A DNA stretch of 64,000 bases from an uncultured Candidatus Saccharibacteria bacterium (GCA_964643955.1 CAZXUO010000002.1:44691-108690); one strand, 5' to 3'. Positions 5,772 through 55,684 are shown, counted from the stretch's first letter. A program made the numbers and translations. Notes: generated by a model not told the origin, from the sequence alone.

Positions 5772-5783
5772 TGTTTCTATCAT

Positions 5784-6002: not shown

Positions 6003-6007
6003 CAGCT

Positions 6008-6295: not shown

Positions 6296-6298
6296 CGT

Positions 6299-7756: not shown

Positions 7757-7828
7757 TCCACGCTCCAAATTTTTTGTCCGTGGTATCATACAATTTACAT
7801 AGAGATTTTTCTCTTGGTGTACTAGTGT

Positions 7829-9283: not shown

Positions 9284-9326
9284 TTTTCAGATTTCTGTTT
9301 TCAAAAATAGTTTATAATTCTTTTGT

Positions 9327-10418: not shown

Positions 10419-10420
10419 AT

Positions 10421-11170: not shown

Positions 11171-11179
11171 ATAGGGCGC

Positions 11180-11860: not shown

Positions 11861-11907
11861 GCGGGCTGGTGGTCGGGTAGAATAGAAACCGGTATAATGC
11901 TCCCGCT

Positions 11908-13836
11908 ATGCAGAAAGACCTTCTTGACCAGCAGCTCGACGCGAATCTTCATGGAAATTTTGAAGAGGGATGGCGCATTGCACAAATTCTTGAGCATGAA
12001 CGGCCCAATGATAACCGAGCGGCATTTAATCGCGGCTGGCATTATCTTTCGCGTGGTGATTTGCAAAAAGGAATGGATCTCATGGATCGGGGGCGATATG
12101 AGGGTGTCTTTGGATCGCCGCCACTTAAGACGGAGAAGCCTATTTGGGATGGAAAAGTATCACTTGTTGGGAAGACGTTGCTGCTCCGTGGAGAGGGAGG
12201 ATTTGGTGACGAGATCATTCATGCGCGTTTTGCGAAGGGTTTTGCGGAGCGCGGAGCGCGGGTGATACTTGCGTGTTCTCCTGAACTTGCGTCGCTCTTA
12301 TCGCGCGTCGAGGGTGTGTCTGAGGTGGTATCGCGCGCGGTGCCGGAACATCTTCTTTTTGATTATTGGGTTCCGGCGATGAGTGCAGCACGTATTCTTG
12401 GTTATACTTTCGAGACGCTCCCGAATGCCCCCTATATTTTTGCGAAAGAAGAAAAGGTGCGTGAACATGCGCTTGCGGGTATTCATAAAGTAGGTATCCG
12501 CTGGTCAGGGAATCCGCGCTTTGAACACGAACAGCACCGACGTTTTCCTGCGGAGCCTTTGTTTGAACTACGACACGGGAAAGATGTGACGCTCTACTCG
12601 CTTCAGCGTGATCACGATCTTCGCGATGTGCCCGAAGGTATCATTGATCTCGAAAAAAAGATGGCGACGTGGGAGGACACGGCGGGTGTGATTGCGAATC
12701 TCGATCTCGTCATCACGTCGTGCACCTCGATCGCGCATCTTGCTGCTGCGATGGGAAAAGAAACGTGGGTCATTACGCCGGTGCTCCCGTACTATATTTG
12801 GGCACAGCCGGGTGAGCGGAGTGCGTGGTATAAGACTGTGCATCTCTTCAGGCAAGAAAGGTTTGGCGATTGGGAAGCGCCGCTTGTTGCAGTTGCGCGT
12901 GCATTTGAAGCACGCTTCGGAGTTGTGTTGCCAACTGAGCGTGAACACGTCCATACTGTTTCTCCTGCTGAATCGTCGCATGGACTCGTCGGCTCATCGG
13001 AAGAAAACGTCGTGCGTCCGCGTGCGCGTGTATCGGAACAGAAAAAGACGATTCATTTTGTATCAGGACTCCCGCGCTCTGGTTCGACGATGTTGATCTC
13101 TCTTCTTTCTCAAAATCCGCGCATACATGGTGCACCGATTTCAGGACTTGCAGGTATTTTTACCGGCATTTACGCAAATTGGGATAAAAATGAATTTCAT
13201 GTTGAGAGCCCCAATGAGACAGCAAAGCGTGCGGTGCTCGCTTCAGTACTCGACGCATATTATGCGCATATTGATAAGCTGATCATCCTTGATAAGGATC
13301 GGTCGTGGGTGTCGCGGATTGCGCTTCTTGAGGATATTTTAGAGCGCGAGGTGAAGATTATTTTACCGGTGCGACCGATCATCGAGATCCTTGCATCATT
13401 TGAGACATTGCGACTCAAGAACCCAACTGATCTTACGGGTGCAGATGAGGCGCTCGGACCGACTTCGACGATTCCGGGACGCGCTGAATATTTTATGAGT
13501 CCGAGCGGAACAATTGGTTTACCTTTCCATTCGATGAAAGATGCGGTGACGACGGGATACCTCGATCGACTTTTGTTTGTTGATTACAACAAACTCATGT
13601 CTGCGCCAAAAGCACAGCTCAAACGCATCTACGAGTTTCTTGAAGAGCCGTCATTTGAACACGATTTTCAAAATATCACTCGGCCTGGTGAGAGTAATCC
13701 AAAAATACATAAATTTCCTGGGCTTCATGACGTACGGCCGAAGTTTGAACGTATCTCCCGCAATCCGCGCTCGCTGCTTGGTGATGATGTGATCGATCGC
13801 TATGGGCAGCCGGATCCGTGGGCGCAGTGGACGTAA
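11908..13836 (+). CDS. Fusion protein: N-terminal GT9 (heptosyltransferase-family) glycosyltransferase domain plus C-terminal sulfotransferase (Sulfotransfer_3-like) domain
   Basis: GT9 signatures LLLRGEGGFGDEIIH and ITSCTSIAHLAAAMGKETWVITPV. Sulfotransferase 5'-PSB-like GLPRSGSTML plus a downstream VRPIIEILAS motif. Confidence 0.6.
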   Translation: MQKDLLDQQLDANLHGNFEEGWRIAQILEHERPNDNRAAFNRGWHYLSRGDLQKGMDLMDRGRYEGVFGSPPLKTEKPIWDGKVSLVGKTLLLRGEGGFGDEIIHARFAKGFAERGARVILACSPELASLLSRVEGVSEVVSRAVPEHLLFDYWVPAMSAARILGYTFETLPNAPYIFAKEEKVREHALAGIHKVGIRWSGNPRFEHEQHRRFPAEPLFELRHGKDVTLYSLQRDHDLRDVPEGIIDLEKKMATWEDTAGVIANLDLVITSCTSIAHLAAAMGKETWVITPVLPYYIWAQPGERSAWYKTVHLFRQERFGDWEAPLVAVARAFEARFGVVLPTEREHVHTVSPAESSHGLVGSSEENVVRPRARVSEQKKTIHFVSGLPRSGSTMLISLLSQNPRIHGAPISGLAGIFTGIYANWDKNEFHVESPNETAKRAVLASVLDAYYAHIDKLIILDKDRSWVSRIALLEDILEREVKIILPVRPIIEILASFETLRLKNPTDLTGADEALGPTSTIPGRAEYFMSPSGTIGLPFHSMKDAVTTGYLDRLLFVDYNKLMSAPKAQLKRIYEFLEEPSFEHDFQNITRPGESNPKIHKFPGLHDVRPKFERISRNPRSLLGDDVIDRYGQPDPWAQWT

Positions 13837-13845
13837 GTTCGTCCC

Positions 13846-13880
13846 CACGCCGCGACGCCAAAGGTGTTGCGGCGTTTTGC
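13846..13880 (+). terminator. Possible intrinsic terminator after the GT9-sulfotransferase gene
   Basis: cgccgc..gcggcg stem followed by TTTT. Confidence 0.35.
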
Positions 13881-13901
13881 TACCTGCTATAATTCCTCCA
13901 T

Positions 13902-15029
13902 ATGACGCTTGCGCGGCGAGTAATGATGGTGCTGAGAGAGGCGGCTGCGGTGCTCGATCCTGCACTTTGGTCGTGGGGGATGGGTAGCGTAGGTTCTTTG
14001 GGCGATGGTTCTACCACCAATCGTTCCTCTCCCGTCCAGGTTGGGACGTTGTCTGATTGGGTTATTCTTTCTTCAGGTGGAAGGAATTCATCAGAGGGAT
14101 GGAATCAGGCAATAAAATCAAACGGCACCCTCTGGGCATGGGGTGCCGGCCCTTTGGGTAATCTTGGGTTGGGTGACACGAATAATCGTTCCTCTCCCGT
14201 CCAGGTTGGTTCACTCACAACATGGAAGAGCGTTTCTGCGGGGGCTGCCCACTCATTTGGTATTCAAAGTAACGGCACCCTCTGGGCATGGGGCCTAAAT
14301 TCTACCGGCCAATTAGGTCAAATAAGTAACAATACTAATAGATCCTCTCCTGTTCAGATTGGTTCTTTAACAACATGGACTGCAGTTGCTGCAGGTGCGG
14401 CACACGGAGTTGCACTCCAATCAAATGGCACTCTTTGGACGTGGGGTCGTAATAATGAAGGTGAGCTTGGGCAAATTAGTAATACGACCAATCGTTCCTC
14501 TCCTGTCCAAGTTGGTTCACTTACTACATGGACTGCAGTTGCGGCTGCGTACACTCATTGCTTAGCTCTCCAATCAAATGGCACTCTTTGGACGTGGGGT
14601 GACAATAGGAACGGTCGTCTTGCGGACGGCTCTACCACCAATCGTTCCTCTCCCGTCCAAGTTGGTTCACTAACAACATGGTCAGGACTTGGACTAGGGA
14701 GCTCTCTCTATCATTCCGTTGCTCTCCAATCAAATGGCACTCTTTGGACGTGGGGGACGGGGTCTTCTGGTCGTCTCGGTGACGGCGCAGCCTCCAACCG
14801 CTCCTCTCCCGTCCAAGTTGGTAGTCTAACAAGTTGGGTTATGGCTTCGGGAGGTGTGCAAATGAGTGCTGTCAGGGCAGATGGGACTATTTGGACGTGG
14901 GGTCCAAACGGAACGGGGGCTTTAGGCGATGGCTCAACCATCGACCGCTCCTCTCCCGTCCAAGTTGGTAGTCTGACTAGCTGGACAAATACTTCCACGA
15001 GCGGTACCCACACACTCGGACTACGGTAG
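13902..15029 (+). CDS. RCC1-repeat protein paralogue (no N-terminal domain)
   Basis: Eight RSSPVQVGSLT.W repeats. Upstream TGCTATAAT extended -10. Confidence 0.75.
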   Translation: MTLARRVMMVLREAAAVLDPALWSWGMGSVGSLGDGSTTNRSSPVQVGTLSDWVILSSGGRNSSEGWNQAIKSNGTLWAWGAGPLGNLGLGDTNNRSSPVQVGSLTTWKSVSAGAAHSFGIQSNGTLWAWGLNSTGQLGQISNNTNRSSPVQIGSLTTWTAVAAGAAHGVALQSNGTLWTWGRNNEGELGQISNTTNRSSPVQVGSLTTWTAVAAAYTHCLALQSNGTLWTWGDNRNGRLADGSTTNRSSPVQVGSLTTWSGLGLGSSLYHSVALQSNGTLWTWGTGSSGRLGDGAASNRSSPVQVGSLTSWVMASGGVQMSAVRADGTIWTWGPNGTGALGDGSTIDRSSPVQVGSLTSWTNTSTSGTHTLGLR

Positions 15030-35824: not shown

Positions 35825-37906
35825 ATGGCGGGAAAATCAGATTCAAAGGAGCCTAAAAAGAGCTCATACAGCGCCTCAGCCATCACCGTCCTCGAAGGAC
35901 TCGATCCTGTACGCAAGCGTCCGGGTATGTACATCGGTACCACTGGTCCCGATGGTCTCCATCACCTTATTTGGGAAGTCTTCGACAACTCACGCGACGA
36001 AGCGATGGGTGGTTTTGCAAATCGTGTTGAAGTAGTACTGCTTCCGGGCAATCGTATTCGTGTTGCGGACAACGGCCGTGGTATTCCGGTCGACATGCAC
36101 AAGCAGACGAAAGTTTCTGCGCTCGAGACCATCATGACGACGCTCCATGCCGGAGGAAAGTTTGGTGGCGAAGGATATAAAGTGTCGGGCGGTCTCCACG
36201 GAGTGGGTGTGTCGGTAGTAAACGCACTTTCTACGTATGTACGTGCAGACGTGTATCGCGATGGCGGCCACTTTGTGCAGGAGTACAACATCGGCAAGCC
36301 AAAAGCAAAAGTGAAGCAGGTAGGAAAGTCTGATGCAAACGGCACCATCATCACCTTTGAGCCGGACATCACCATTTTTAAAGAGATTTCTTTTGAATGG
36401 AACCGTATCGTTTCACACCTTCGTCAGCAGGCGTATCTCGTAAAGGGTATGCACCTCTCGGTGATCGATGCGCGGGAGTATCAGGGCTCGCTCGATCTTG
36501 ATGATGTCTTTTATTTTGCAGACGAGGGTATTGAAGCACCGTCACAGACCTTTTATTTCCAAGGCGGTCTCCGTTCATTGGTTGCATTTCATAATCAGTA
36601 CCAAGATCCGATCCATCGTCACATTTTTTACGTTGAAAAGAATGACTACGATGCGTCCGTCCTCTCGGTTGAGGTCGCGCTCCAGTACGTCGACGATATT
36701 TCTTCGCGCATCACTGCGTTTGCAAACAACATCTATAACCCCGAGCACGGTACGCACGTGACTGGCTTTAAGACTGCACTCACGCGTACACTCAACTCAT
36801 ACGCGCGCAAGAACAATCTGATCAAAGAGAAAGAAGAATCATTCACCGGTGAAGACGTGCTCGAAGGCATCACGGCGGTGATTTCAGTAAAGATGCCGGA
36901 GATTCAGTTTGAAGGACAGACCAAAGCGAAGCTCGGATCAGTGGAAGCGCGCGGCGCAACAGAAACCGTATTCGGCGATGCATTCTCAATGTTCCTGGAG
37001 GAAAATCCTGATGATGCAAAATCCATCATCAATAAAGTGGCGCTTGCCGTGAAAGCGCGCAAAGCTGCGAAAGCCGCAAAAGACAGCGTGCTCCGCAAAG
37101 GTGCGCTCGACGGCATGACGCTTCCAGGAAAGCTTGCTGACTGTCAGACAAAGAGCGCGGAAGAATCAGAAATCTTTATTGTAGAGGGAGACTCTGCGGG
37201 TGGTTCTGCAAAGATGGGGCGTGATCGTCGCACACAGGCGATTCTTCCGCTTCGCGGCAAGATTCTCAATGTTGAGCGTGCGCGCATCGACAAGATGCTT
37301 GAGTCTGAGCAGATTAAAAATCTTGTGGTTGCAATGGGTGCCGGTATTGGCGACATGTTTGATTTGGGGAAGACGCGTTATCACAAGATCATCATTGCAA
37401 CCGATGCTGACGTCGACGGTGCGCACATCCGCACGCTCTTGCTCACGCTCTTCTATCGATATTTCCGTCCGGTGATCGAAGCTGGCTATCTTTATATCGC
37501 GCAGCCACCGCTCTACAAGATCCAGAAAGGGAAGGAGGTATTTTATGCATACAACGACGCTGAGAAAGTAAAGATTGTGGGTGTGACTGAGGATGTAGAG
37601 CTTCCTGCTGCGGGCGAAGAGCTTCCTCCTGAAGAAGAGCCCGTTGAAGGTGAGGAAGTAGATGAAGAAGTCGCGACAAAACGAAGCTCAAAAGCGCGCA
37701 TCCAGCGATACAAGGGTCTTGGTGAGATGAACGCAGAAGAGCTCTGGGAGACAACGATGAATCCCGCAAACCGTGTCTTGAAGCGCGTGGGTGTGGAGGA
37801 TGCGCAAGATGCTGATAAGGTCTTCGATATTCTCATGGGTACCGACGTGGGTAGTCGTAAGTCATTCATCCAGTCAAACGCCCACATGGCGAATTTGGAT
37901 ATTTAG
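35825..37906 (+). CDS. gyrB: DNA gyrase subunit B (type IIA topoisomerase ATPase subunit)
   Basis: GHKL ATPase motifs, TOPRIM EGDSAGGSAK, and a C-terminal YKGLGEM tail. gyrA is not adjacent. Confidence 0.8.
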   Translation: MAGKSDSKEPKKSSYSASAITVLEGLDPVRKRPGMYIGTTGPDGLHHLIWEVFDNSRDEAMGGFANRVEVVLLPGNRIRVADNGRGIPVDMHKQTKVSALETIMTTLHAGGKFGGEGYKVSGGLHGVGVSVVNALSTYVRADVYRDGGHFVQEYNIGKPKAKVKQVGKSDANGTIITFEPDITIFKEISFEWNRIVSHLRQQAYLVKGMHLSVIDAREYQGSLDLDDVFYFADEGIEAPSQTFYFQGGLRSLVAFHNQYQDPIHRHIFYVEKNDYDASVLSVEVALQYVDDISSRITAFANNIYNPEHGTHVTGFKTALTRTLNSYARKNNLIKEKEESFTGEDVLEGITAVISVKMPEIQFEGQTKAKLGSVEARGATETVFGDAFSMFLEENPDDAKSIINKVALAVKARKAAKAAKDSVLRKGALDGMTLPGKLADCQTKSAEESEIFIVEGDSAGGSAKMGRDRRTQAILPLRGKILNVERARIDKMLESEQIKNLVVAMGAGIGDMFDLGKTRYHKIIIATDADVDGAHIRTLLLTLFYRYFRPVIEAGYLYIAQPPLYKIQKGKEVFYAYNDAEKVKIVGVTEDVELPAAGEELPPEEEPVEGEEVDEEVATKRSSKARIQRYKGLGEMNAEELWETTMNPANRVLKRVGVEDAQDADKVFDILMGTDVGSRKSFIQSNAHMANLDI

Positions 37907-38010
37907 TTTGCCTCATAAAAATCACATGAGACAAGAGTATATTTTTTATTATAGATAATTTGAATTATCGTAGTTACGCGTTACTATGTAGTTTATAAAG
38001 GATATTTGTT

Positions 38011-38283
38011 ATGTCTATTAAGAAAATTTCAGAGTCCCCAAGCGAAGGTAAGGTCACTATTGAGATTGATAATGGTCACCTTGAAGCTCTAAAAAAGATC
38101 ACTGAAGACTATCGCATAAAAGATATAGAACGAACCCTCGGTTTTATTCTAGCCGTTGCTTCAAAAGGCGAGGGTGAACCTATTAAAATTGGTTCGGATA
38201 CGTATGTTCCAGGTAAAGCTATCCGAAGAGAGGCTGAGACTGATGAGGATGTGGAGACCTCAGCGGAAGTTGATATTCAATAA
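38011..38283 (+). CDS. Hypothetical acidic 90-aa protein in an AT-rich islet
   Basis: RBS AAAGGAT. Local GC is about 35%. Confidence 0.4.
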   Translation: MSIKKISESPSEGKVTIEIDNGHLEALKKITEDYRIKDIERTLGFILAVASKGEGEPIKIGSDTYVPGKAIRREAETDEDVETSAEVDIQ

Positions 38284-38289
38284 GCGGTT

Positions 38290-38604
38290 ATGGTTACAAA
38301 AAAGAATGACTTTGATCAGGAGCAGTATGTGCAGAAAGTAGACTCTGCTCATACAAAGCTTCAATCAATCGAAGGGCGATTGAAGAGGATAGAATTACTA
38401 AGCGATGGATCAATAATTTACAGAGCATTCAAGAAAGACAGTGAACTTCGAGATGAGATGGAAAAATTAATCTGGAGGACTATTGTAGGCAAGGCGTTTG
38501 TCGGTTTTTTGTGGATTCTTGGCGGCGTGATTGTTATTCCCTTGGCTGCAAAGATTGTTTCAGTCATCGCTCTCCGTATGTTTGGGGTCGATCTATTTTG
38601 GTAA
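38290..38604 (+). CDS. Hypothetical 104-aa protein with C-terminal double TM segment (holin/immunity-like topology)
   Basis: A coiled N-terminal half, then IVGKAFVGFLWILGGVIVIPLAAKIVSVIAL. Confidence 0.4.
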   Translation: MVTKKNDFDQEQYVQKVDSAHTKLQSIEGRLKRIELLSDGSIIYRAFKKDSELRDEMEKLIWRTIVGKAFVGFLWILGGVIVIPLAAKIVSVIALRMFGVDLFW

Positions 38605-38625
38605 CATTCGGGTAGTAGTGGAAAT

Positions 38626-38658
38626 TAAAAACAGCCGCCCGAAGGGCGGCTGTTTTTA
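38626..38658. terminator. Strong bidirectional intrinsic terminator
   Basis: aaaaacagccgcccgaagggcggctgttttt. Confidence 0.85.
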
Positions 38659-38673
38659 TTTGTGTCAGTGAGA

Positions 38674-39699
38674 TTAATTGTCGATGCGGACAGTCTGTGA
38701 GAATGAGTTGTTTGCGAGCTTTGAGTCATCTGATGCGTAGACTGTTGCAGTTGCACGTTCGCTCGAAGAGTCACTTACGTTATCAAACTGAAGCGTGATG
38801 GTCTGGCGTTCGTTTGGCTTGAGGCCCGACTGCATCGCTGAGACATAGTTGTCTTCTGCTTCGGTCGGAAGCTCTGCGCGGAAGTTCCATGCGCCAGAAG
38901 TCTTCGTGCCGATGTTGCGTACTTCAAACTGAAGTGCGCCACGCTCACCCTCTTCAAGCTCAGACTGCTTTACGAAGCGGCCGTTGCGATACTCGCCAAC
39001 ACCAATGAAGGTAACTGCGAGATCAACATATCCGTTTGGATTTGAAACAGGGTATGAGGTCGTCACTACGGGTACCGTGATCACTGTTGTTGGTGTCGTT
39101 GGTTTTGGAGTAGTCGGCTTTGGCGTACTTGGAGTCTCGTCATCGCCACCAGTGTTTGTGTTGGTGGTCACGGTACCGTTGTTCACCGCAGGGTTTGAAA
39201 CGGTGATGATGCCGGTGCGCTCGTATGATTCGTCCTGTGAGTCATCGGCGATAAATGCGATCGTGTAGAGGACGTCAGTAAAGCGATTCTTTTCTGAAGT
39301 AAATGAAACTTTGACCGTGTTGGTCGTTGTTTCGATAATCGCTTCGGTCTCACATGAGAGTGCGCTCATGCCACCAACGTTATCCTCGATGCGTGCAGAA
39401 ATACCGTCTGCACATTGGTATGAGAATGTGTATGTACCGCGCGTCGCAAGGGGAGTCCATGAGAACGTGGTCTCTTTTCCGCTTTCAAGCGTACCTTCGC
39501 TTGATGCAATCGTGAAATCACCACGACGTGTGTGGTCGAGGCTGTCAGCGATCGATGCGAGCGTACGAAATGCTGCAGGAATAAGGCGGACTGCCTGTAC
39601 TGCGAGCCATGCAACGAGAATAATGCCGACGATAAAGCCGATAATAGCGAGCGTCTTGATGACCGCTGTCTTTTGCGGTTCGTTGGTGGTATTGTTCAT
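38674..39699 (-). CDS. Membrane-anchored extracellular protein with Thr/Pro-rich linker (TPKPTTPKPTTPTT) and beta-rich domains
   Basis: N-terminal TM anchor, a low-complexity linker and Ig-like beta segments. Confidence 0.5.
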   Translation of the reverse strand: MNNTTNEPQKTAVIKTLAIIGFIVGIILVAWLAVQAVRLIPAAFRTLASIADSLDHTRRGDFTIASSEGTLESGKETTFSWTPLATRGTYTFSYQCADGISARIEDNVGGMSALSCETEAIIETTTNTVKVSFTSEKNRFTDVLYTIAFIADDSQDESYERTGIITVSNPAVNNGTVTTNTNTGGDDETPSTPKPTTPKPTTPTTVITVPVVTTSYPVSNPNGYVDLAVTFIGVGEYRNGRFVKQSELEEGERGALQFEVRNIGTKTSGAWNFRAELPTEAEDNYVSAMQSGLKPNERQTITLQFDNVSDSSSERATATVYASDDSKLANNSFSQTVRIDN

Positions 39700-39817
39700 A
39701 ACGAAGTGATGCTACCATATTTAGTATAACTTGTCAATAGAGCCATAAAATGGCGTAATGATGGGCGGGAGATTGACAAAAATGCTATAATGATGTATTA
39801 TTTAAGCCATTATTTTC

Positions 39818-40474
39818 ATGCAGTTTCCGCATAACGACAACGCAATGAACGCACTCGCTCACATTCTCGCAAACAAGGCCCGCTTTTTTGCGGCGTTCTT
39901 CGTCGTGTTTGCGGTGACGTATGGTTTTCTTTACGCAATAGATTTTATTCCAGAAGCACCGGCGGAAGAGGAAATTGTGCACAGGGAAGAAATTCCGCGT
40001 GAGCAGATTGTGAATGCCCCCCGCGCGAATGTTGATCCGCATCCAGAACGCATCATCATCGATGCGCTTGGTAAGGATATTGCCGTCCTCAATCCTGAGA
40101 GCCGTGAAATTGCTGATCTCGATGCGGCGCTCCTTGATGGCGTCGTGCGCCACCCTGACTCCGCTGACTTCTCAAAGGATGGCAACATGTTTCTCTTTGG
40201 CCACTCAAGCTATCTTCCCGTTGTATACAATCGAAACTATCAGGCATTCAATGGTCTTCAGGATCTCGTGAAGGGAGACATCGTGCGCGTGCAGTCTTCT
40301 GACACCGAGTATGTGTATCGTGTGACGAAATCATACAAGGTGAAAGCGAGCGAGTCGCAGATCGCACTCGATCATAGCGCCGCAAAGCTCACGCTCGTGA
40401 CGTGTAACTCATTTGGATCAAAGGATGATCGCTTCGTAGTCGAAGCTGAGCTCGTCGATACAAAATCGCTTTAG
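39818..40474 (+). CDS. Sortase-family transpeptidase
   Basis: N-terminal anchor, catalytic LFGHS and LTLVTCN (TLxTC) motifs. Confidence 0.75.
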   Translation: MQFPHNDNAMNALAHILANKARFFAAFFVVFAVTYGFLYAIDFIPEAPAEEEIVHREEIPREQIVNAPRANVDPHPERIIIDALGKDIAVLNPESREIADLDAALLDGVVRHPDSADFSKDGNMFLFGHSSYLPVVYNRNYQAFNGLQDLVKGDIVRVQSSDTEYVYRVTKSYKVKASESQIALDHSAAKLTLVTCNSFGSKDDRFVVEAELVDTKSL

Positions 40475-40494
40475 AACGCAATTTGCTGAGGGAA

Positions 40495-40524
40495 AAACAC
40501 GGCCGCGCTTCGCGCGGCCGTGTT
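40495..40524 (+). terminator. Intrinsic terminator after the sortase gene
   Basis: aaaaacacggccgcgcttcgcgcggccgtgtt. Confidence 0.6.
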
Positions 40525-40527
40525 AGT

Positions 40528-41787
40528 ATGTGCGAAATGGCGAAGTCAAACGTTGCGCCGCGACAAAATAGAAAGAAATATTTTCTCATCGGCCTCACAC
40601 TTGCGTGCGTGGTAGCGGGTGCGTATTGGTATGCGCTCGCTGCGTGGAAAGCAGGCGATCTATGTCTTGCGCCAGAAGGCGTACAGCCTGAAGACGTGCT
40701 CTTTACCGATGCGGATGCATTTCGTGCATTTGCGGGTGATCTTCGTAGTGGCGCGCGAGCGCAGCTCGCGCGCCAGTTTGACCCGCAGACCGGCTTCTTC
40801 CGCTACTCCGACACGCCAGGCGGCGAGACCTCCTCGGGCAACAACGACATCCGCCAATTGCTCGCATCGCGCGTCGTCGCACTCGAAAGCCATGCGGATG
40901 AAGCGATGCTTGCGATCCATGATGCAAATCTCGCTGCCATTATGCGCAACTGGTACCAAGAAGATGCGAGTGCAGGCTTTGTGTTTGCTGATGAGAAATC
41001 AAAGCTCGGTGCAAACGCGATGCTTCTACGTACGCTCGTTGCGAGTCCGCACTTTGAATCATATCGAGATGAAGCAGAGAAACTCGTGCGCAGTATCGAG
41101 CTTCTGCAAGCGCCTGATGGATCATTCTCATCACCGTGGTATCGCGAGCCGGACTACGAGTATGATGCTGACTACTTGTTGACCTTCTACTCGGGCGAAG
41201 CGATTCTTGCGCTCATGGAGTATGTCGAGAAAACTGAAGATGCTCGTGCGTATGCCACCGCAGTCCGCGCTCAGGATTTTTACATCACGCACTACGTCAC
41301 TGATCTCGAAGAGAATTATTATCCTGCGTATGTGCCGTGGCATACCGCATCGCTCGCACTGCTCTACGAACGTACAAAAAATAAAAAGTATGCGGATGCA
41401 GTCTTTGTACTCAACGACAAGCTCTTAGAGATACAAGATACCGAACGTTTTGTTGGTCGTTTCTATAATCCTGCGACGCCGCAGTACGGCACACCGCATG
41501 CATCGTCTGATGCGGTCTATACTGAAGGACTCGCGTATGCGTACGGTGTTGCAAAGGCGGTGGGCGATGCAGCGCGTATCGCGCGCTATCACGACGCAAT
41601 CGTGCTCGGTGTACACAATCTGGAGAGTCTCCGGTATGAGCCACGCTTTTGGTATTTTGATGATGGGGAGGCGAGCGAGCGCTTGCGCGGCGGCATTATG
41701 ACCAATGCGTGCAGCAGGTGGATTCGTATTGATACGACCGCACATGCGATCGACGGACTGACCAAAATCCTCGAGGTGTGGGAATAA
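40528..41787 (+). CDS. Hypothetical membrane-anchored extracytoplasmic protein (~420 aa)
   Basis: The track start at 40483 is TTG inside the terminator hairpin; ATG 40528 is preferred. N-terminal TM helix. No recognisable motif. Confidence 0.45.
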   Translation: MCEMAKSNVAPRQNRKKYFLIGLTLACVVAGAYWYALAAWKAGDLCLAPEGVQPEDVLFTDADAFRAFAGDLRSGARAQLARQFDPQTGFFRYSDTPGGETSSGNNDIRQLLASRVVALESHADEAMLAIHDANLAAIMRNWYQEDASAGFVFADEKSKLGANAMLLRTLVASPHFESYRDEAEKLVRSIELLQAPDGSFSSPWYREPDYEYDADYLLTFYSGEAILALMEYVEKTEDARAYATAVRAQDFYITHYVTDLEENYYPAYVPWHTASLALLYERTKNKKYADAVFVLNDKLLEIQDTERFVGRFYNPATPQYGTPHASSDAVYTEGLAYAYGVAKAVGDAARIARYHDAIVLGVHNLESLRYEPRFWYFDDGEASERLRGGIMTNACSRWIRIDTTAHAIDGLTKILEVWE

Positions 41788-41807
41788 TTCCACCACATTT
41801 TTCTATA

Positions 41808-41835
41808 TTGACAAATCCCCATTTTCGTGTATAAT
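41808..41835 (+). promoter_or_regulatory. Consensus sigma70 promoter TTGACA-N16-TATAAT at the left edge of the GC-rich island
   Basis: ctatattgacaaatccccattttcgtgtataat. Confidence 0.55.
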
Positions 41836-41892
41836 CTCGCCCAGACCGATCGTTGACACGATCAGGTAAATCAACAGAAAGAGAGGCTTCAA

Positions 41893-42792
41893 ATGGTCCG
41901 TTTCTTCTTGTCGCTCATCGCGCTCTGTGCGATGGCGACCGCGTCGCTGGCCCAGAAGCCGGTGACGTACTCGTTCGGACAGGAGCCGGTCTTCGAGACC
42001 GGTCCGGTCTCGGCGTATCGTCCTCCGACCACTGGCGAGCTTCCCGTTCGCGAGTGGGATCCGCGGACGGACGCGACGCGTGAGGTGATGCGTCACCTCA
42101 ACGCGACCGTCTGTCCGACTGCGCGCACGTTCGTCGACTGCTGGGCCGAGGCTCCGCCTCGCGCCGGCAACAAGAACGTTAAGCAGGGCTTTATGGTGTT
42201 CACGGTGATCGCCTACGAAGGTGGTCGCGGCAGCATCATGAACCGTATGCTCGCCGGCAAGCTGCCGGCCGAGTACGGTGGTGCGCTCTGGCAGGCGAGC
42301 GCGGACGCCGCATCCGGCATTTTCCGTGCCGATTGCGACGCAGCGTTCGTACGCTTCACCAACATGCGGGTTGCGGTTCCGAAAGGGCCGTACCCGGTGA
42401 TCGGCTGGCATGGCCAGGTGCGCGAGAGTGTCTTCATCGACACGGTCGCGCGCGAGGACAGCAAGCTGGGGTACGGCGTGCCGTCGACCATGGTGCGTAT
42501 GCACCGCGGTCAGGCGCTCCTCGCTGTGCCGGAGATCATCTTCGCGAATCGGGCCGACAACCCGATCGGGCAGGTGAACATCTTCCACGGCGGAAAGGAT
42601 AACTCGCTTCTGCATCTTCCGCAGGGCGCGGCTGGCCTCTTCACTATTCCGGCAAGTGGATCGCGCGAGAATGACTTTCTTCGTGCGATCCGCGAGACAG
42701 GAATGCTGCGGATCGCGGCGATCGTCGAGAAGGGCGTATGCCCGCGTTTCGACTTCGCCAACTTCCGCGTCAACCAACCCCAGAGGAGGTGA
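41893..42792 (+). CDS. Secreted protein (Sec signal peptide) of unknown function, GC-rich island gene 1
   Basis: MVRFFLSLIALCAMATASLA signal peptide with RBS AGAGAGG. GC3-rich codon usage is distinct from flanking genes. Confidence 0.55.
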   Translation: MVRFFLSLIALCAMATASLAQKPVTYSFGQEPVFETGPVSAYRPPTTGELPVREWDPRTDATREVMRHLNATVCPTARTFVDCWAEAPPRAGNKNVKQGFMVFTVIAYEGGRGSIMNRMLAGKLPAEYGGALWQASADAASGIFRADCDAAFVRFTNMRVAVPKGPYPVIGWHGQVRESVFIDTVAREDSKLGYGVPSTMVRMHRGQALLAVPEIIFANRADNPIGQVNIFHGGKDNSLLHLPQGAAGLFTIPASGSRENDFLRAIRETGMLRIAAIVEKGVCPRFDFANFRVNQPQRR

Positions 42793-42793
42793 C

Positions 42794-43471
42794 ATGACGG
42801 AGATGGGACGGCGGAGTTTCATCCGCCTCTCGGGCGCAGCACTCATTGGAGTTGCTGTGTCCACGAGCTTCGGCTCCGGCGCGGTCGCGCAGGAACCGAA
42901 GCTCGGGTCGCTTCCGAAAGGAGCAACCCCTCACGTATGGCGCGCCTCCGAATGGGGGGCCGCGCCATACATCGAGCGGCAGGACTTGCTCCGAAAGGAG
43001 ATGAGTTCAGGCCGCATCCACGCGGCGCTCTCGCAGTTCGCTGCCGAGGCCGATCGGCTCTATCGGGAGAATCCCGAGGAGTACGACGCGGTGCGGCAGC
43101 AACTTTCTCTCGACCGTGAGCAGTTCGCGGATGAGGTGGCAGATGGTTTTTGGGGGGAGGCTCCGCTTCTCTTCGAAATCTTTGACCTGCCACAGCATTC
43201 GCAGGTTGAACTTATCGGCCATGGCGAGCACTTCGACCGGCAGATGTTTCGTGGCGGCAAGGTCGTCCAGAACGTCGTCGCAGATCGAGGTGGCCTTCGG
43301 TACGGTACGTCCGATCGGGCGTTCGTACTGACTGGCGGTGCGATGCGTATCGCCATTCCAGGGGTGTGCGGAAACGTGTCGCTCCAGAAGGTGAGACGTG
43401 GACAGGCCGTCTGTGTGCCGTTGCCCAAGGGCAAGCCACAGACGGTCGCTGACGCCCTTCGTCGAGCCTGA
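42794..43471 (+). CDS. Tat-exported protein (twin-arginine signal RRSFIRLSGAALIGVAV) of unknown function, GC-rich island gene 2
   Basis: Strong RBS GAGGAGGT. Canonical S/T-RR-x-F-L-K-like Tat motif. Confidence 0.55.
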   Translation: MTEMGRRSFIRLSGAALIGVAVSTSFGSGAVAQEPKLGSLPKGATPHVWRASEWGAAPYIERQDLLRKEMSSGRIHAALSQFAAEADRLYRENPEEYDAVRQQLSLDREQFADEVADGFWGEAPLLFEIFDLPQHSQVELIGHGEHFDRQMFRGGKVVQNVVADRGGLRYGTSDRAFVLTGGAMRIAIPGVCGNVSLQKVRRGQAVCVPLPKGKPQTVADALRRA

Positions 43472-43510
43472 TCGTGAAGAAAAGAAGGGTGCCTACGGGT
43501 GCCGAAACTT

Positions 43511-43544
43511 GCGCGGGGACCCCTAGGGGAACCCGCGCTTTTAT
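43511..43544 (+). terminator. Intrinsic terminator between island genes 2 and 3
   Basis: gcgcggggacccctaggggaacccgcgctttt. Confidence 0.6.
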
Positions 43545-43545
43545 A

Positions 43546-43574
43546 TTGACAATTTTATACTGATATGCTATAAT
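43546..43574 (+). promoter_or_regulatory. Consensus sigma70 promoter TTGACA-N17-TGcTATAAT, followed by a ~105-nt leader
   Basis: tatattgacaattttatactgatatgctataat. Confidence 0.55.
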
Positions 43575-43682
43575 ACAAATGTTAGGAGGTGTCTGTACAA
43601 AACGCTCTCGGGCGTAATTTTGTGTAGATATCTCCTCGCAGGTGCGTGGAGAGTTCATCGAAAATTCTAGAAGGAGAGAGAC

Positions 43683-44411
43683 ATGCGCTTTTTCAATCTG
43701 GTTGCGACGTTCGTCGCGGCCCTTGTGCTCGCCGCCTGCGTCAGCAGCGGTTCGGGCAACAAGTCGTCGACGAGCTTTTTCGGAAGCTCGCCGACGCGCG
43801 TCGCCGACTTCAAGGTCGGCGAGCGTGTCGAGTACGACAAGGGGAGGTGGTTCCACCTCGAGCTGATGGCGCTCGACGACGCGCCGATCGGCCAGGCGAT
43901 CCTCGAGAACCGGCCGAACCCGGTGATGGTGGCGAAGAAGGAAGATCGCGCGGCGCGCGGCGCCCGGGAGTCCTACAAGCAGGACTACCCCGAGAGCCGG
44001 CACATGGACTTGCTCGACGGTGTGTCGAGCAAGTTCGGTCTTCTGCGGTTCGCGCCGCAGGGCTGCGTCGTCGATGTCGTCGTCCGTGGCATCGACGCGT
44101 CGAGCGTCGGCGAGACGGCCGTCCTCATGACGGGTCAGCGTTTCGTCGGGACGATCCGTCCCGACCGCGATGGTTCGCATATGGTGACCTTCAAGGACGT
44201 TCGCGTCCGCGAGATCACCACGCTGCGGCTGCCGCACGAATGGGGCGACCGCCCCACGGTGACGCTGGTCGCCAAGACCTGTCGGGTGATGAATCCTGGC
44301 AGCGACGGCAAGCATGTCACCGCGTCGTTGCGCCACCGGCGTGACAACGTCGGTATGCCGCTCGGCCTGCTCATCCGCTCCGCGGGTGCGCAGGCCGCCG
44401 ACCGCAACTAG
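43683..44411 (+). CDS. Lipoprotein (lipobox LAAC) of unknown function, GC-rich island gene 3
   Basis: MRFFNLVATFVAALVLAAC signal and lipobox. RBS AGGAGAGAGA. Confidence 0.55.
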   Translation: MRFFNLVATFVAALVLAACVSSGSGNKSSTSFFGSSPTRVADFKVGERVEYDKGRWFHLELMALDDAPIGQAILENRPNPVMVAKKEDRAARGARESYKQDYPESRHMDLLDGVSSKFGLLRFAPQGCVVDVVVRGIDASSVGETAVLMTGQRFVGTIRPDRDGSHMVTFKDVRVREITTLRLPHEWGDRPTVTLVAKTCRVMNPGSDGKHVTASLRHRRDNVGMPLGLLIRSAGAQAADRN

Positions 44412-44611
44412 TCGCGGCCGTTGACGGACGCTGGGGAGGCGGGTATGGTGTACTCGTCTCCCCAGAGCTCCTTCTGTTCTTCATCTCTCCCTCATGCGAG
44501 GAAGAGCTTATTTGTTAGAAAGCAGAATCATGACAATCACTTCGATTGTCATCACTTGCTTCTTTGCAAAACAAAGGAGGTGTTACAAAAATTATAAATA
44601 GTATTTACGTT

Positions 44612-47143
44612 ATGAACGTTATTCAGAATGCTGTTGCGTACGTACAGTCACACAAGAAGCTGATTATTATCGGCGCTTTTCTCGTGTCTGTGTATGCAGT
44701 AGGTGCGGTGACGATCCCGTACTCAAACATCCACGTCTCATTTAATGACGATGGTTCTATCGCGCTCGCCGAAGGTGGCGACGGAGACGGAGATGGTGAC
44801 GGTGATGGAGACGGAGATGGTGACGGTGATGGAGACGGAGATGGCGGAACAGGAACTGGTACCGACGGCGGCGGAGGCTGCTGTGGTGGTGCTGATAGTC
44901 CTGGTGATACTGGCGGAGATGAAGGTCCTGATGCTTCACCAACACCAGATCCAGAACCAACACCAGAACCTACACCAGAACCAACACCTGAAGACCCTGG
45001 TCCTACACCAGACAATGGTCAGTATGGTGGATATGAGGAACCATACGTTCCGTATGTTCCTCCATATGAGCCCGGATGTACCTATGACTGTGATCCAGGT
45101 GATGGAGACGGCGACGGAGATGGTGATGGAGACGGCGATTGTACATACAACTGTAATCCTCCAACCTGTACCCATAACTGTAATCCTCCACACTACGAGA
45201 AGCCATTCTGTACACTTTCTGCTTCTCCAAAGAATATTGAGAAAGGAGATTACTCAACACTCTACTGGACGACACACAACGCAACGCACGGTTCTATCAA
45301 CAACGGCGTTGGTTCAATGACACCTATTAAGAATGGTTCACGCGAGGTTTCTCCGTACCAGACGACTACCTACACCGCAACGGTGTATGGAAAGGGTGGT
45401 AGCGCAAACTGTTCGGTAACCATCAAGGTGTACACACCTCCAGTTAAAAAGACTCCAAGCTGTGAGCTTGCGATCTCAGTTCACTCAATCAAGAAGGGTG
45501 AGAGCGCACGCGTAGATTGGGATGCTCAGAACATCGAGCGCGTTGTTATCAAGGCAATCTCTGCTGACGGAACGTCAACAGTAAAGGATACAAATGCACT
45601 CTCTGGTTCATTTGTTGTAACACCTCAAAAAGATACAACGTACAAGGGTATTTTCTCAGGAAAGCACGGAACCGTTGAATGTGAAGATGATATTACGGTA
45701 ACTAAGAAGCCAGACGACAAGCCGCTTCGCTGTGATCTCTTCCGCGCAAATCCTTCATCAATCGATGAGGGCGATGAGACAACTCTCACATGGGAGACGA
45801 CCGGCGCAACGTCAGTATCGATCAACAACGGTGTTGGCTCAGTCTCACAGGATGGTGATACCGATGTCCGCGTCTACGACGATACGACCTACACACTCAC
45901 GGCTCGCCGTGGAAATGACGAGGTGACCTGTACGACATACGTAGAGGTCGATGAAGATGAGGATCGTGATCCAAAGAACCCACGCTGTGAACTCTTCCGC
46001 GCTGACGATACGAACATTCGTGCCGGTGAGCGTGTTGAGCTCCGTTGGGAGACAAAGAACGGCAAGCGTCTTATTATCGAAGACAGCCGTGGAAACGAGA
46101 TTGTTGATACTCGTGATGACGATGAAGTCGACGAAGGCGAAGTAAACGTACGCCCAACCCGCGATACCCGCTACACCCTTACGGTGGAAAATGGTAACGA
46201 TGAGGATGAGTGTACGGTCCGCGTGAATGTGGAGGATCAGAAAATCACGGTCATCACAGATCGCGATCAGCAGCCACTTACGTACATCTCACTTACTGAG
46301 GTGCCGTACACTGGCTTTGACGCTGGTCCATTCCTCACGAGCGTCTTCTACACGATTCTCGCACTCTGGAGCGCCGCAGTCGCATACATGCTCGTGATCA
46401 AGAAGGGCGCAATCTTCGGATACGCACTTCCTGCAGGTCTCGCACGCATCCGCGATGAGGTAATGGCTCCACGCGCAGCTGCACCAGTTGCCGCTTCAAC
46501 CGCAGCTCCGGCGCACGCATACGGCGCAACGATCATCGACGAGGTGATTGGCGAGAAGGAAGGTGTACATCTCGAAGAGATGGCACATCAGCACAATGTA
46601 CTCCTCTCATCAGACGCAATCCGCCTCATCATTGATCAGGCAGATTCTGACGAGGAAGAGGTAGAGCTTCTCGATGCAGTCATCGCACGCGCAAAGGAAG
46701 CATATCCACGCGAAGACGGCTGGATCGTTATCAACCGCGCACGCATCGCTGAACTCTTTGCAGATGAACCTGCGACAGAGGAGGTAGTGCCCGCAGCTGA
46801 AGAGATTCCCGTTGTTGCACCAGTAGAGGAAGTGATTGTTCCAACAAACACCCTCGCTGAAGCAATCCTCGCAGGCAACATTGTAGGTGCATACGCAGCG
46901 CTCGGTGAGAACGCAATGTTTGCACTTGCAGACGCCGCAGCTGATCTCGATGCTGTCTACCGCGCACGTCGTGGTGAGGCACAGGAAGTATCAGCAGCAC
47001 TTACACGTTCTGCAGCACGACTTTCAGATGCACAGCTCGAAGGTGTAGTCGCTGCGCTCACGAGCGCAATTGACGGCACCTACGCAGACGAAGCATCTGC
47101 CGTAAAGCTTGCAGTCCTCAAAGCGATTAAGACGGTTGCGTAA
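44612..47143 (+). CDS. Large Cys-rich surface protein with N-terminal anchor, (GD)n and PEPT low-complexity tracts, repeated ~100-aa beta domains and a C-terminal TM/Ala-rich region
   Basis: (GD)17 is encoded by an imperfect GGNGAY hexanucleotide tract (44757-44850), with a second (GD)n at 45100-45140. Repeated C..L.W.T....V.IN.GVG domains. The start is ambiguous (TTG 44546 or ATG 44612; the RBS at 44575 is poorly spaced). Confidence 0.55.
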   Translation: MNVIQNAVAYVQSHKKLIIIGAFLVSVYAVGAVTIPYSNIHVSFNDDGSIALAEGGDGDGDGDGDGDGDGDGDGDGDGGTGTGTDGGGGCCGGADSPGDTGGDEGPDASPTPDPEPTPEPTPEPTPEDPGPTPDNGQYGGYEEPYVPYVPPYEPGCTYDCDPGDGDGDGDGDGDGDCTYNCNPPTCTHNCNPPHYEKPFCTLSASPKNIEKGDYSTLYWTTHNATHGSINNGVGSMTPIKNGSREVSPYQTTTYTATVYGKGGSANCSVTIKVYTPPVKKTPSCELAISVHSIKKGESARVDWDAQNIERVVIKAISADGTSTVKDTNALSGSFVVTPQKDTTYKGIFSGKHGTVECEDDITVTKKPDDKPLRCDLFRANPSSIDEGDETTLTWETTGATSVSINNGVGSVSQDGDTDVRVYDDTTYTLTARRGNDEVTCTTYVEVDEDEDRDPKNPRCELFRADDTNIRAGERVELRWETKNGKRLIIEDSRGNEIVDTRDDDEVDEGEVNVRPTRDTRYTLTVENGNDEDECTVRVNVEDQKITVITDRDQQPLTYISLTEVPYTGFDAGPFLTSVFYTILALWSAAVAYMLVIKKGAIFGYALPAGLARIRDEVMAPRAAAPVAASTAAPAHAYGATIIDEVIGEKEGVHLEEMAHQHNVLLSSDAIRLIIDQADSDEEEVELLDAVIARAKEAYPREDGWIVINRARIAELFADEPATEEVVPAAEEIPVVAPVEEVIVPTNTLAEAILAGNIVGAYAALGENAMFALADAAADLDAVYRARRGEAQEVSAALTRSAARLSDAQLEGVVAALTSAIDGTYADEASAVKLAVLKAIKTVA

Positions 47144-54778: not shown

Positions 54779-55684
54779 ATGGCAAACCGGCACCTTTCGA
54801 GAAGTATTGTTCTCCAATCACTCTTTGAATGGGATCTTAATAATGTAGGTAAGAGCGACGTACGCGACGTCCTCGACCGAAACGTCTCCGAGTTTGCACC
54901 CAATAAATCTGACATGCCGTTTATGGAACGGCTCCTTGATGGTGTATTGCAGAAGCAGAAGGAGCTCGATCTTGTGATCGAAAAAGCAGCACCGGAGTGG
55001 CCCATCGATCGCATCTCGCCAGTTGATCGTAATATCCTCCGCCTCGGTCTTTTTGAGCTTCTGTTTTCAGATCGCAAAGAGGTACCGGCAAAGGTGGCGA
55101 TCAACGAAGCGATTGAACTCGCGAAGCAGTTTGGCGGCGATAATTCTGGGCGCTTCGTCAACGGAGTACTCGGTGCGGTATATAAAGAAATCGGTGAGCC
55201 GGGCAAGGAAGAAAATTCAAAGCGTAAGCAACGCAATGTGCCGTATGAAGAAATGCCGGTCGAGCACCTCGTCGGTGCCGTAGTGTACGCAGAAGAGGGT
55301 GACGACATGCATCTTGCACTCGTGCACGATATTTTTGGACATTGGACTCTCGCAAAGGGTGGCGTAGAGGATGGTGATGATCTCGAGGCGGGCGTCGTGC
55401 GAGAAATAAAGGCAGAGCTCGGACTCGACATTGTTGTCGAACAAAAGCTTGGGGAAAATGAGTACGTCGCATCTGACCCAGAAAAGGGAAAGAAGCGAAA
55501 ACACGTGACCTATTTCCTCGCGAAAGCGAAATTTGAAGAGATTCGTCTTGAGAAAAAGGGTGGTCTCGATGACGCACAGTGGTTTAAAATCGCGAAGATC
55601 CTTGAACTCAACTTTTATGAGGATATTCTGCCGATTGTGACCAAGGCGGTGACCATGCTTGTCGGAAGAGGCAGAACATCGTAG
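54779..55684 (+). CDS. nusB: NusB antitermination factor fused to a C-terminal NUDIX hydrolase domain
   Basis: NusB-like N-terminus (SIVLQSLFEWDL..RNILRLGLFELLF..AINEAIELAKQFGG). C-terminal Nudix box GGVEDGDDLEAGVVREIKAELGL. Confidence 0.7.
   Translation: MANRHLSRSIVLQSLFEWDLNNVGKSDVRDVLDRNVSEFAPNKSDMPFMERLLDGVLQKQKELDLVIEKAAPEWPIDRISPVDRNILRLGLFELLFSDRKEVPAKVAINEAIELAKQFGGDNSGRFVNGVLGAVYKEIGEPGKEENSKRKQRNVPYEEMPVEHLVGAVVYAEEGDDMHLALVHDIFGHWTLAKGGVEDGDDLEAGVVREIKAELGLDIVVEQKLGENEYVASDPEKGKKRKHVTYFLAKAKFEEIRLEKKGGLDDAQWFKIAKILELNFYEDILPIVTKAVTMLVGRGRTS

Follow-up and report, generated by a model that had tools for sequence, protein, structure and literature searches.

The DNA analysed here, called the window throughout, is a stretch of 64,000 nucleotides (nt) from an uncultured Candidatus Saccharibacteria bacterium (GCA_964643955.1 CAZXUO010000002.1:44691-108690), and our subject is a GC-rich island at 41.8-44.4 kb that holds three genes, designated g1, g2 and g3 (together, the trio), each encoding a protein with an export signal. 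All three are on the plus strand between two further genes, g0 and g4, and they would form two transcription units: unit A, in which a promoter (P1) and a short leader precede the Sec-secreted g1, the Tat-exported g2 and a terminator, and unit B, in which a second promoter (P2) and a leader of about 100 nt, bearing a long 5′ hairpin, are followed by the lipoprotein gene g3 and a hairpin at its end.

The 299-residue product of g1 (41893-42792) is a Sec-type secreted protein of no known family, and its signal peptide, MVRFFLSLIALCAMATASLA followed by QK, is predicted to be cleaved after SLA at residue 21. The start of g2 (42794-43471) lies 1 nt past the g1 stop codon, with a GGAGG ribosome-binding site ahead of it, and the 225-aa protein carries a putative signal peptide of the twin-arginine (Tat) type, MTEMGRRSFIRLSGAALIGVAVSTSFGSGAVA followed by QE, with a GRRSFIRL motif and an AxA cleavage site (AVA, then QE). 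Its RR pair is invariant in an alignment of six sequences and is also found in the homologue from L092 (related sequences are given L numbers here); the cysteine pair C192/C207 is invariant across homologues, and there is a C-terminal C...C.P.P motif. The third gene, g3 (43683-44411), encodes a 242-aa lipoprotein whose signal peptide ends in ...ALVLAAC and fits the lipobox pattern (LAAC, Cys19). The mature part varies, in contrast to the conserved signal peptide; the lipobox cysteine is invariant among the closer homologues (alignment A11) and missing from P0032 and L092, which are distant members. Export machinery of the kind that g2 would require is encoded in the window at 4893-6002, by tatC (4893-5771, plus strand; Pfam PF00902 TatC, E = 2.4e-40) and a tatA-like gene (5784-6002, plus strand) with the TatA-like N-terminus MFGLGLPEVIIIALAVAIFFFGGKK, while neither Lgt nor LspA turned up in general Pfam scans of the open reading frames (ORFs) of the window. 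An earlier reading of this DNA, made without database searches (the sequence-only reading), had claimed both the three exported proteins of these types and the presence of TatAC, and direct reading of the signals and of the tat genes bears it out.

Scans of the family libraries Pfam, NCBIfam, PHROG and PADLOC gave no match for g1-g3, nor for g0, and searches of the PDB by sequence, with single sequences and with profiles of g1-g3, returned nothing significant. No catalytic motif and no toxin, peptidase, nuclease or lipase domain was found in the trio with Pfam, PADLOC and the other libraries, in agreement with the sequence-only reading, which had recognised no catalytic motif. By sequence, the trio represents three undescribed protein families. 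AlphaFold2 models built from shallow alignments (pLDDT 72 and pTM 0.74 for g1, pLDDT 80 and pTM 0.74 for g3) each have a helical N-terminal part and a C-terminal beta-sandwich, and in a fold comparison these predicted folds may resemble adhesin or pilin sandwiches. Aligned with hhalign, g1 and g3 show a marginal relation (probability 50%, E = 1.6e-4), and the two may be paralogous. An LPXTG-type sorting signal was not found in g1-g3, the only candidate being IPASG in g1, which has no transmembrane (TM) segment downstream.

The trio are real genes under purifying selection, with ratios of nonsynonymous to synonymous substitution (dN/dS) of 0.13, 0.18 and 0.27 for g1, g2 and g3, respectively, against L005, a sequence with about 93% nucleotide identity to the window over 13 kb. 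The GC content of their first, second and third codon positions (GC1, GC2 and GC3) follows the order GC3 > GC1 > GC2, as in true genes of GC-rich DNA. Two long antisense ORFs overlie the island on the minus strand, of 353 aa (41803-42864) and 374 aa (43212-44336), and the public gene call in L005 chose a 335-aa antisense ORF (10054-11061, minus strand) over g3. These antisense ORFs do not show the GC3 > GC1 > GC2 pattern and are therefore artefacts of high GC, so that automated annotation of the locus is unreliable.

When the 64 kb were scanned for TTGACA-N16-18-TATAAT, with 100 shuffles as a control, exactly two perfect sigma-70 promoters were found, at 41808 and 43546, against an expectation of 0.01; none of the 100 shuffles reached two. 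P1 (41808-41835, plus strand) is TTGACA-N16-TATAAT and P2 (43546-43574, plus strand) is TTGACA-N17-TATAAT with a TG extension, both matching the consensus at 12/12 positions; transcription is predicted to begin near 41842 and 43581. The hexamers and most of the spacer of P1 are identical in L005, L004 (about 89% nucleotide identity to the window) and L086, and the more divergent L094 has a 12/12 promoter before g1 with the spacer end TTTTCGTG in common with P1. P2 is conserved in L005, L004, L086 and L090; in L094 and L089 the sequence before g3 is TTGACA with TGcTATGCT, and in L095 a 12/12 promoter immediately precedes the g3 homologue. Unit A is closed by a terminator (43511-43545, plus strand) formed by a GCGCGGG...CCCGCGC hairpin (43511-43538) followed by CUUUUAU, with a folding z of -3.4, and equivalent hairpin and U-run terminators of other sequence follow g2 in L086 and L094. 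Downstream of g3, a 16-bp hairpin with a weak U-tract (44431-44465, plus strand) is a probable terminator, and the DNA around it (44353-44652) is at 98% identity to L005. The two promoters and both hairpins had been pointed out in the sequence-only reading; the scan confirms the former as the sole 12/12 matches in the window and folding confirms the latter. In L096 (3333-3616) there is one near-consensus promoter, TTGACA-N17-TATTAT, with a leader of more than 200 nt, and the gap between g2 and g3 holds only a hairpin. The L096 trio appears to be a single operon, and the promoter layout of the module would therefore vary between lineages. Because perfect consensus promoters have been retained across genera, we infer that the trio is very highly expressed.

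Folded over 123 nt, the g3 leader has a minimum free energy of -42.4 kcal/mol (z = -4.0), and near the predicted 5′ end it carries a hairpin of about 53 nt (43584-43636, plus strand) whose 5′ arm starts with AGGAGGU and whose 3′ arm ends with AUCUCCU. Single-sequence folds made lineage by lineage, over 43578-43690 in the window, L086:2124-2240, L094:10758-10869 and L089:186-300, give the same architecture in other sequence (z = -3.2 in L086, -3.8 in L094 and -1.7 in L089), with a Shine-Dalgarno-like AGGAGG or AGAGG in the 5′ arm pairing with CUCCU or CCUCU; the same fold comparison did not find the hairpin in the g3 leader of L095. Rfam has no family anywhere in the island, the g3 leader included, and the hairpin, kept in four lineages, is a candidate for a new cis-acting leader element. 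Its role would most likely be to stabilise the mRNA or to tune translation.

The compositional step is as abrupt as the sequence-only reading had claimed. GC content is 0.630 over 41893-44411 and 0.513 in the rest of the window, and a 400-nt profile climbs from 0.53 to 0.60-0.67 across 41.8-44.4 kb before falling to 0.475; the intergenic pieces within the island are AT-rich (0.41 at 41788-41892 and 0.46 at 43472-43682). Most of the excess is at third codon positions: GC3 is 0.797, 0.695 and 0.877 in g1, g2 and g3, compared with a mean of 0.520 (standard deviation 0.062, maximum 0.657) in the 45 other genes of the window, which corresponds to z scores of 4.5, 2.8 and 5.8. Relative synonymous codon usage (RSCU) sets the trio apart from its host in the same way, as the correlation of trio with trio across lineages is 0.70-0.96 and that of trio with its own host is 0.54 in the window and -0.32 in L096; the usage nearest to that of the trio is of the L094-type host (r = 0.6-0.8). 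At the protein level, R/(R+K) is 0.74 in the trio versus 0.46-0.57 in the window, and 0.62 versus 0.31 in L096. The composition of the segment is non-native.

The sequence-only reading had explained this composition by supposing that an extracytoplasmic module of three genes had recently been acquired by horizontal transfer, with a high-GC host or partner as the source, and set under AT-rich local promoters, and the GC3 z scores of 2.8-5.8, the codon usage unlike that of the host and the Arg-rich, Lys-poor proteins do favour such an import. However, the same composition is found wherever the module occurs. GC3 is 0.70-0.88 in the trio and about 0.52 in neighbouring genes of the window, 0.78-0.86 and 0.62-0.76 in L094, 0.66-0.71 and 0.31-0.47 in L096, and in L095, where g3 alone is present, 0.74 in g3 with 0.47 upstream and 0.63 downstream. 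The L096 contig has a GC content of 0.48 and neighbouring genes at 0.37-0.47, and its trio is nevertheless GC-rich. The GC-richness is thus a standing property of the module in every carrier genome and no scar of recent entry. The upstream gene g0 shares the synteny and the depth of conservation of the trio, yet its GC content follows the host (0.37 in L096, 0.54 in the window and 0.55-0.57 in L094). Codon adaptation to high expression was also considered as a cause and was ruled out: the ribosomal-protein, tsf and gap genes have a GC3 of only 0.46-0.55, so that ordinary codon adaptation does not account for the trio, and C and G at third positions (C3 and G3) are both raised, with the rise in G3 as large as that in C3.

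The best relatives of the ThrRS of the window are Patescibacteria (Paceibacterota, Parcubacteria and the like, at 68% identity or less), and the gene content, with a sortase, a CARDB protein, RCC1-repeat proteins and small central-metabolism and translation sets, is consistent with this group. A word-indexed search of 5.8 billion proteins returned for each query only clusters 85-95% identical to itself; distant members came within reach only with an exhaustive HMMER search, which recovered 16 relatives in total for the three families among 1.84 billion representatives. All relatives of the trio with a readable contig sit in a Patescibacteria-type context, a count that leaves out two of the 16. 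No high-GC donor is among them.

The gene order CARDB, sortase, g0, g1, g2, g3, g4 is found in L005, L094 and L096. L094, a 24-kb contig of assembly GCA_964556805.1, reads pheST, gyrB, CARDB, sortase, g0, g1, g2, g3, g4, thrS, dnaE, and its amino acid identity to the window is 85% for gyrB, 82% for dnaE and 66% for pheT; in L096 it is 54% for g0 and 51% for the sortase. In L094 both g0 (261 + 136 aa; L094:7700-8920) and ThrRS (291 + 111 aa; L094:14438-15688) are split, either by frameshifts, as pseudogenes or through assembly errors. A g1-g2(-g3) set is present in L086, L087, L090 and L091, lying in L086 directly 3′ of a g0 fragment with 94% identity to its counterpart in the window, and the trio of L092 is compact. 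In L095 a promoter and g3 come immediately after g0, g1 and g2 being absent, and units A and B are therefore separable. Thus the trio was found in place in L005, L004, L086, L094 and L096, an empty site being seen in none of these relatives, and in L005, L004 and L094 it occupies the same site with the same GC profile.

These comparisons contradict a recent import from a high-GC outsider and agree with what the sequence-only reading had itself named as grounds for refuting it. The synonymous divergence (dS) of the trio from L005, 0.28-0.49, equals that of the flanking genes (0.19-0.50), and the segment is therefore older than the split between the window and L005; the promoters, too, are conserved across genera along with the module, and the 1.84 billion representatives held no homologue beyond the 16 family members. 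The module is missing from L013 and L016, which could be taken in favour of an import. These two keep the synteny dnaE, thrS, g4 ... sortase, CARDB, gyrB with no room for g0-g3, the sortase abutting g4 or nearly so (in L016 the g4 homologue abuts it), and they are about as distant from the window as L096 (about 70% amino acid identity for dnaE, 45-53% for the sortase). The module therefore marks a subclade and not all Paceibacteria, across which the interval between gyrB and thrS is variable. Overall we regard a recent import as very unlikely. The abrupt GC change at both ends could also come from an assembly chimera, in which a fragment of a high-GC organism was joined into a Patescibacteria contig, and a check for this had been advised with the sequence-only reading. 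It has next to no chance of being correct, since an independent Logan contig from SRR12762304 matches 37180-44812 at 100% identity, spanning both junctions, the same arrangement is present in three other assemblies and two more distant lineages, and the conserved promoters lie inside the junctions.

The sharp edges of the island might also be those of a mobile element, the trio being the cargo or remnant of a prophage, an integrative and conjugative element or an integron-like cassette, or the target of a diversity-generating retroelement. Patescibacteria are rich in such retroelements, and the neighbouring g4 matches the PHROG category 'virion structural protein' (E = 3.7e-43). Against this, no integrase and no mobility domain was found with Pfam in the neighbouring genes, the window has no att-like or attC-like repeats, and its only tRNA gene, at 30238, does not flank the island. 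Phage or plasmid relatives were not found in IMG/VR scans with the g3 and g1 alignments or in a DNA search of PLSDB, a BFVD fold search gave no match at E <= 0.001, and g0-g3 have no PHROG match. A diversity-generating retroelement target was rejected, as the window contains neither a reverse transcriptase nor a template/variable repeat pair and the differences between alleles run through the whole genes instead of clustering in one part. For this locus we likewise rejected an integron cassette, phage cargo and, as far as mobility is meant, a genomic island, and a mobile-element origin of any of these kinds strikes us as highly improbable. The window also holds no second copy of g1-g3 or of the conserved segments described below, and no recombinase among the scanned ORFs; with no paralogous copies there, silent cassettes and an inversion system were rejected as well.

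Comparison with L086 divides the locus into conserved frames and variable bodies. The left frame (41473-41846, plus strand) contains the 3′ end of g0 and P1 and is 90.4% identical to L086 over 374 nt, the similarity ending at 41846, about 11 nt past the -10 hexamer and near the expected transcription start; it is also conserved in L005 and L004. The first variable body (41847-43540, plus strand), with the g1 leader, g1, g2 and the terminator, has no blastn similarity to L086, non-coding leader and terminator included, and is replaced there as one block by a deeply divergent allele, whose own leader and terminator are unrelated in sequence and serve the same purpose. Similarity resumes in the middle frame (43541-43772, plus strand), which holds P2, the structured leader of about 100 nt and codons 1-30 of g3, covering the signal peptide, the lipobox and a few further residues, and is 89.3% identical to L086, 89.8% to L090 and about 98-99% to L005 and L004. 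From 43773 onward, in the mature part of g3, DNA similarity to L086 was again not detected. The breakpoints at 41846, 43541 and 43772 are sharp. In a sliding comparison with L005, the trio coding sequence is at 83-89% nucleotide identity and the non-coding segments 43453-43752 and 44353-44652 are at 98%.

The divergence of the proteins follows the same boundaries. Those of L005 are 85-89% identical to the trio, and those of L086 are 46, 39 and 38% identical for g1, g2 and g3, respectively (34% for the mature part of g3), with dN of 0.5-0.74 and dS of 0.8-1.8. For g1 and g2 the dS relative to L086 is 1.2-1.8 against 0.48 in the flank, and within g3 the first 30 codons have a dN of 0.09 and a dS of 0.22, the rest a dN of 0.74. 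Judged by g0, however, the two relatives are equally close to the window, with dS 0.64 and dN 0.045 for L005, and dS 0.48 and dN 0.030 for L086. Between genera, the trio of L094 is as far from that of the window (44, 36 and 37% identity) as the trio of L086 is within the group, and the g3 of the window is nearer to that of L089 (45%) than to that of L086 (38%). Since the g1 leader and the terminator are swapped along with the proteins, the pattern argues for replacement and not for protein evolution in place.

It could still be supposed that the trio has remained where it is and diverged through very fast positive selection, without any exchange of alleles, the frames simply reflecting constraint on the promoters and the signal peptide. 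The regulatory segments are indeed constrained, at 98% identity to L005 as opposed to 85% in the adjacent coding sequence, and the trio exceeds housekeeping genes 5-20-fold in dN/dS. Yet between the window and L005 this ratio is 0.13-0.27 and not above 1, the dS between the window and L086 is itself 2-4 times that of the flank, the non-coding leader and terminator are wholly different next to flanking DNA that is 90% identical, and allele distances do not track flank distances. Fast protein evolution in place could neither raise dS nor erase non-coding similarity, and we consider it unlikely. The simplest account of the breakpoint pattern would be an exchange of old alleles, in which deeply divergent forms, older than the species split, have been swapped by homologous recombination in the conserved frames, and the trio alleles appear to move between lineages.

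We therefore favour, with a probability of roughly 0.6, the interpretation that in this Patescibacteria (Paceibacterota-like) bacterium the island is a hypervariable cell-envelope locus, specific to its lineage and fixed in position. Conserved frames are formed by the two promoters together with the leader and signal peptide of g3, and the transcribed bodies between them would be deeply divergent allele classes older than the species that carry them. Homologous recombination in the frames and the flanking genes would swap these bodies, much like a serotype cassette, while within one allele class the proteins are under ordinary purifying selection. The products would probably be abundant, antigenically variable surface proteins of a single-membrane, sortase-bearing cell. 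The g3 lipoprotein would be anchored on the outer side of the membrane, next to which g1 and g2 would be released, perhaps to act jointly. The diversity of these proteins could be kept by frequency-dependent selection exerted by whatever recognises the surface, be it a host cell, a phage or a predator. That the trio encodes abundant surface proteins whose variability comes from recognition pressure outside the cell is the most economical reading.

The GC-richness of the module would have one of two origins. Either a shared pool of GC-rich alleles, perhaps centred in higher-GC relatives, is drawn on repeatedly by related lineages, or GC-biased gene conversion acts at a heavily recombining locus. 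In bacteria, GC-biased gene conversion usually moves GC3 by a few percent. Recombining bacterial core genes tend to have a raised GC3 (PMC4450053).

Several points weigh against the interpretation of a hypervariable envelope locus. Only one second allele class is seen beside close flanks, and its source is a set of metagenomic pieces of 1.0-3.0 kb (L086, L087, L088, L090 and L091), none of which reaches the right-hand boundary. Recombination is deduced from the breakpoint pattern, and the conserved frames that would act as its anchors are AT-rich. The GC3 shift of the trio, 0.1-0.3, is far above the few percent typical of GC-biased gene conversion, and a GC-rich reservoir lineage for the trio alleles was not found among the relatives drawn from the 1.84 billion representatives. 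Scans of JGI metagenomes gave no further copies, the 27-nt leader core having 0 matches and the g3 alignment pattern matches without any true relative among them.

A bolder form of this interpretation, which we hold only tentatively, is that in a clade of Patescibacteria the locus is a serotype-like surface cassette that sets phage or partner (host-cell) specificity. Its alleles, which would predate the species, would cross lineages through recombination in the promoter and signal-peptide frames, and its GC content would be kept by a locus-specific force, namely selection acting on the mRNA of very highly expressed genes or GC-biased gene conversion of unusual strength. A different function can be imagined for the same genes, namely a polymorphic antagonism module in which g1, perhaps together with g2, would act as secreted toxin or bacteriocin-like effector and g3 as a membrane-tethered immunity lipoprotein, the diversity arising from competition between strains. 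Toxin-immunity loci typically show deep allele classes with co-varying neighbour genes and include a lipoprotein partner, and the strong promoters and the extracytoplasmic destination predicted for all three products would suit this function. It is hard to reconcile with the lack of any toxin, peptidase, nuclease or lipase domain and of any PADLOC or Pfam match, with the presence of g3 without g1 and g2 in L095, and with the possible paralogy of g1 and g3, which would be unusual for a toxin and its immunity protein; the predicted folds, moreover, may resemble adhesin or pilin sandwiches. Antagonism is thus an improbable role for the trio in our view, and we retain that of surface proteins.

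The neighbours of the island are envelope genes as well. Upstream lie a CARDB-domain protein gene (38674-39699, minus strand) and a sortase gene (39818-40474, plus strand), both identified with Pfam and of host-like composition, followed by g0 (from 40483 or 40528 to 41787, plus strand), whose product has one N-terminal TM segment and belongs to no known family; GC3 in these three genes is 0.53-0.55. Downstream, g4 (44546/44612-47143, plus strand) encodes a large surface protein rich in repeats, which has Cys-rich segments, repeated Ig-like modules and low-complexity runs of (DG)n and PTPEP. Homologues of g4 flank the trio in L005 and L094, and the L096 contig holds its first 60 aa. Within the g4 protein there is a sortase-like signal (residues 564-600) made up of VPYTG, a TM segment and KKG, with about 250 Ala/Glu-rich residues beyond it; the position of this putative sorting signal is odd, and the sortase gene lies 4 kb upstream of g4.

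Other parts of the window drew our attention as well. Beside the 3′ end of thrS, the AT-rich segment 47353-47952 (GC 0.40-0.46) is 100% identical to L005 in DNA whose surroundings are at 92-96%; the Logan gene calls place small ORFs in it (141 and 42 aa), Rfam has no match there at the gathering threshold, and either a recent recombination tract or a conserved RNA that has escaped annotation is conceivable. The region 4893-15029 continues after tatC and tatA with a small ORF (6008-6295) bearing an RRRR Tat-like signal and with four RCC1-repeat proteins among GT2, GT8 and sulfotransferase genes, and it may be a second envelope or glycosylation cluster. The Logan gene table also lists, at 54779-55684, a 301-aa fusion of NusB and NUDIX (Pfam PF01029 + PF00293).

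Patescibacteria are thought to live attached to other cells (PMC13622651). The present locus offers three candidate surface proteins that are probably abundant and certainly fast-diverging. To our knowledge, the surface molecules that mediate attachment and partner specificity in Patescibacteria are largely uncharacterised outside a few cultivated Saccharibacteria. A natural experiment is at hand in the two allele classes, whose backgrounds are near-identical, and the locus is a clean case for asking why genes keep their own base composition across hosts of differing GC; if a locus-specific GC force does operate here, it would be among the clearest bacterial examples of a gene-specific composition uncoupled from the genome. 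The conserved consensus promoters and the leader hairpin could be useful as expression parts for organisms that are hard to engineer. There is also a warning for annotation, as island callers based on GC would mark the locus as foreign, and a gene caller has already taken an antisense ORF for g3 in one assembly.

Among known systems, the vsp genes of Mycoplasma bovis, the vpma genes of M. agalactiae and the vsa genes of M. pulmonis come close to g3, in that a conserved promoter, 5′ untranslated region (UTR) and lipoprotein signal peptide precede a variable mature part. In the vpma family the 5′ UTRs and signal-peptide regions are conserved and one unique promoter drives expression (PMC2268961). 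Both the Mycoplasma systems and the present locus occur in wall-poor or minimal-genome bacteria that depend on their surface. Unlike the situation here, the Mycoplasma systems keep silent paralogues in one genome, which are swapped behind one promoter by an adjacent Xer-like recombinase, whereas our locus has one copy in the 64-kb window and no recombinase nearby, and its variants are alleles that differ between strains; it also shows no sequence similarity to these systems and has two additional genes, g1 and g2, that do not encode lipoproteins. Serotype-type loci, such as those for capsule, O-antigen and variable surface antigens, undergo allelic replacement between conserved flanks, usually have a lower GC content and carry biosynthetic enzymes. 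The locus is like them in its divergent allele classes at one position, its flanks capable of acting as anchors, its atypical composition and the purifying selection within a class, and differs in that GC is higher in every host, that the variable genes encode three small exported proteins and that the breakpoints fall at promoter and signal-peptide boundaries. Judging from the predicted folds, the CnaB and Ig-like beta-sandwich domains of sortase-assembled Gram-positive pilins and MSCRAMM adhesins (PitA, SpaA, SpaD, GBS52 and CnaB2) may be counted as another near system; g1-g3 are without LPXTG. As in genes with recombination-associated GC3 enrichment (PMC4450053), the GC excess is strongest at third positions and the locus bears signs of recombination, but the shift is far larger here (+0.1 to +0.3 GC3) and reaches the amino acid composition. 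Compared with known hypervariable surface loci, two features of this one are unusual: the boundaries of its alleles lie on promoter and signal-peptide frames, and it stays GC-rich across hosts of very different GC content.

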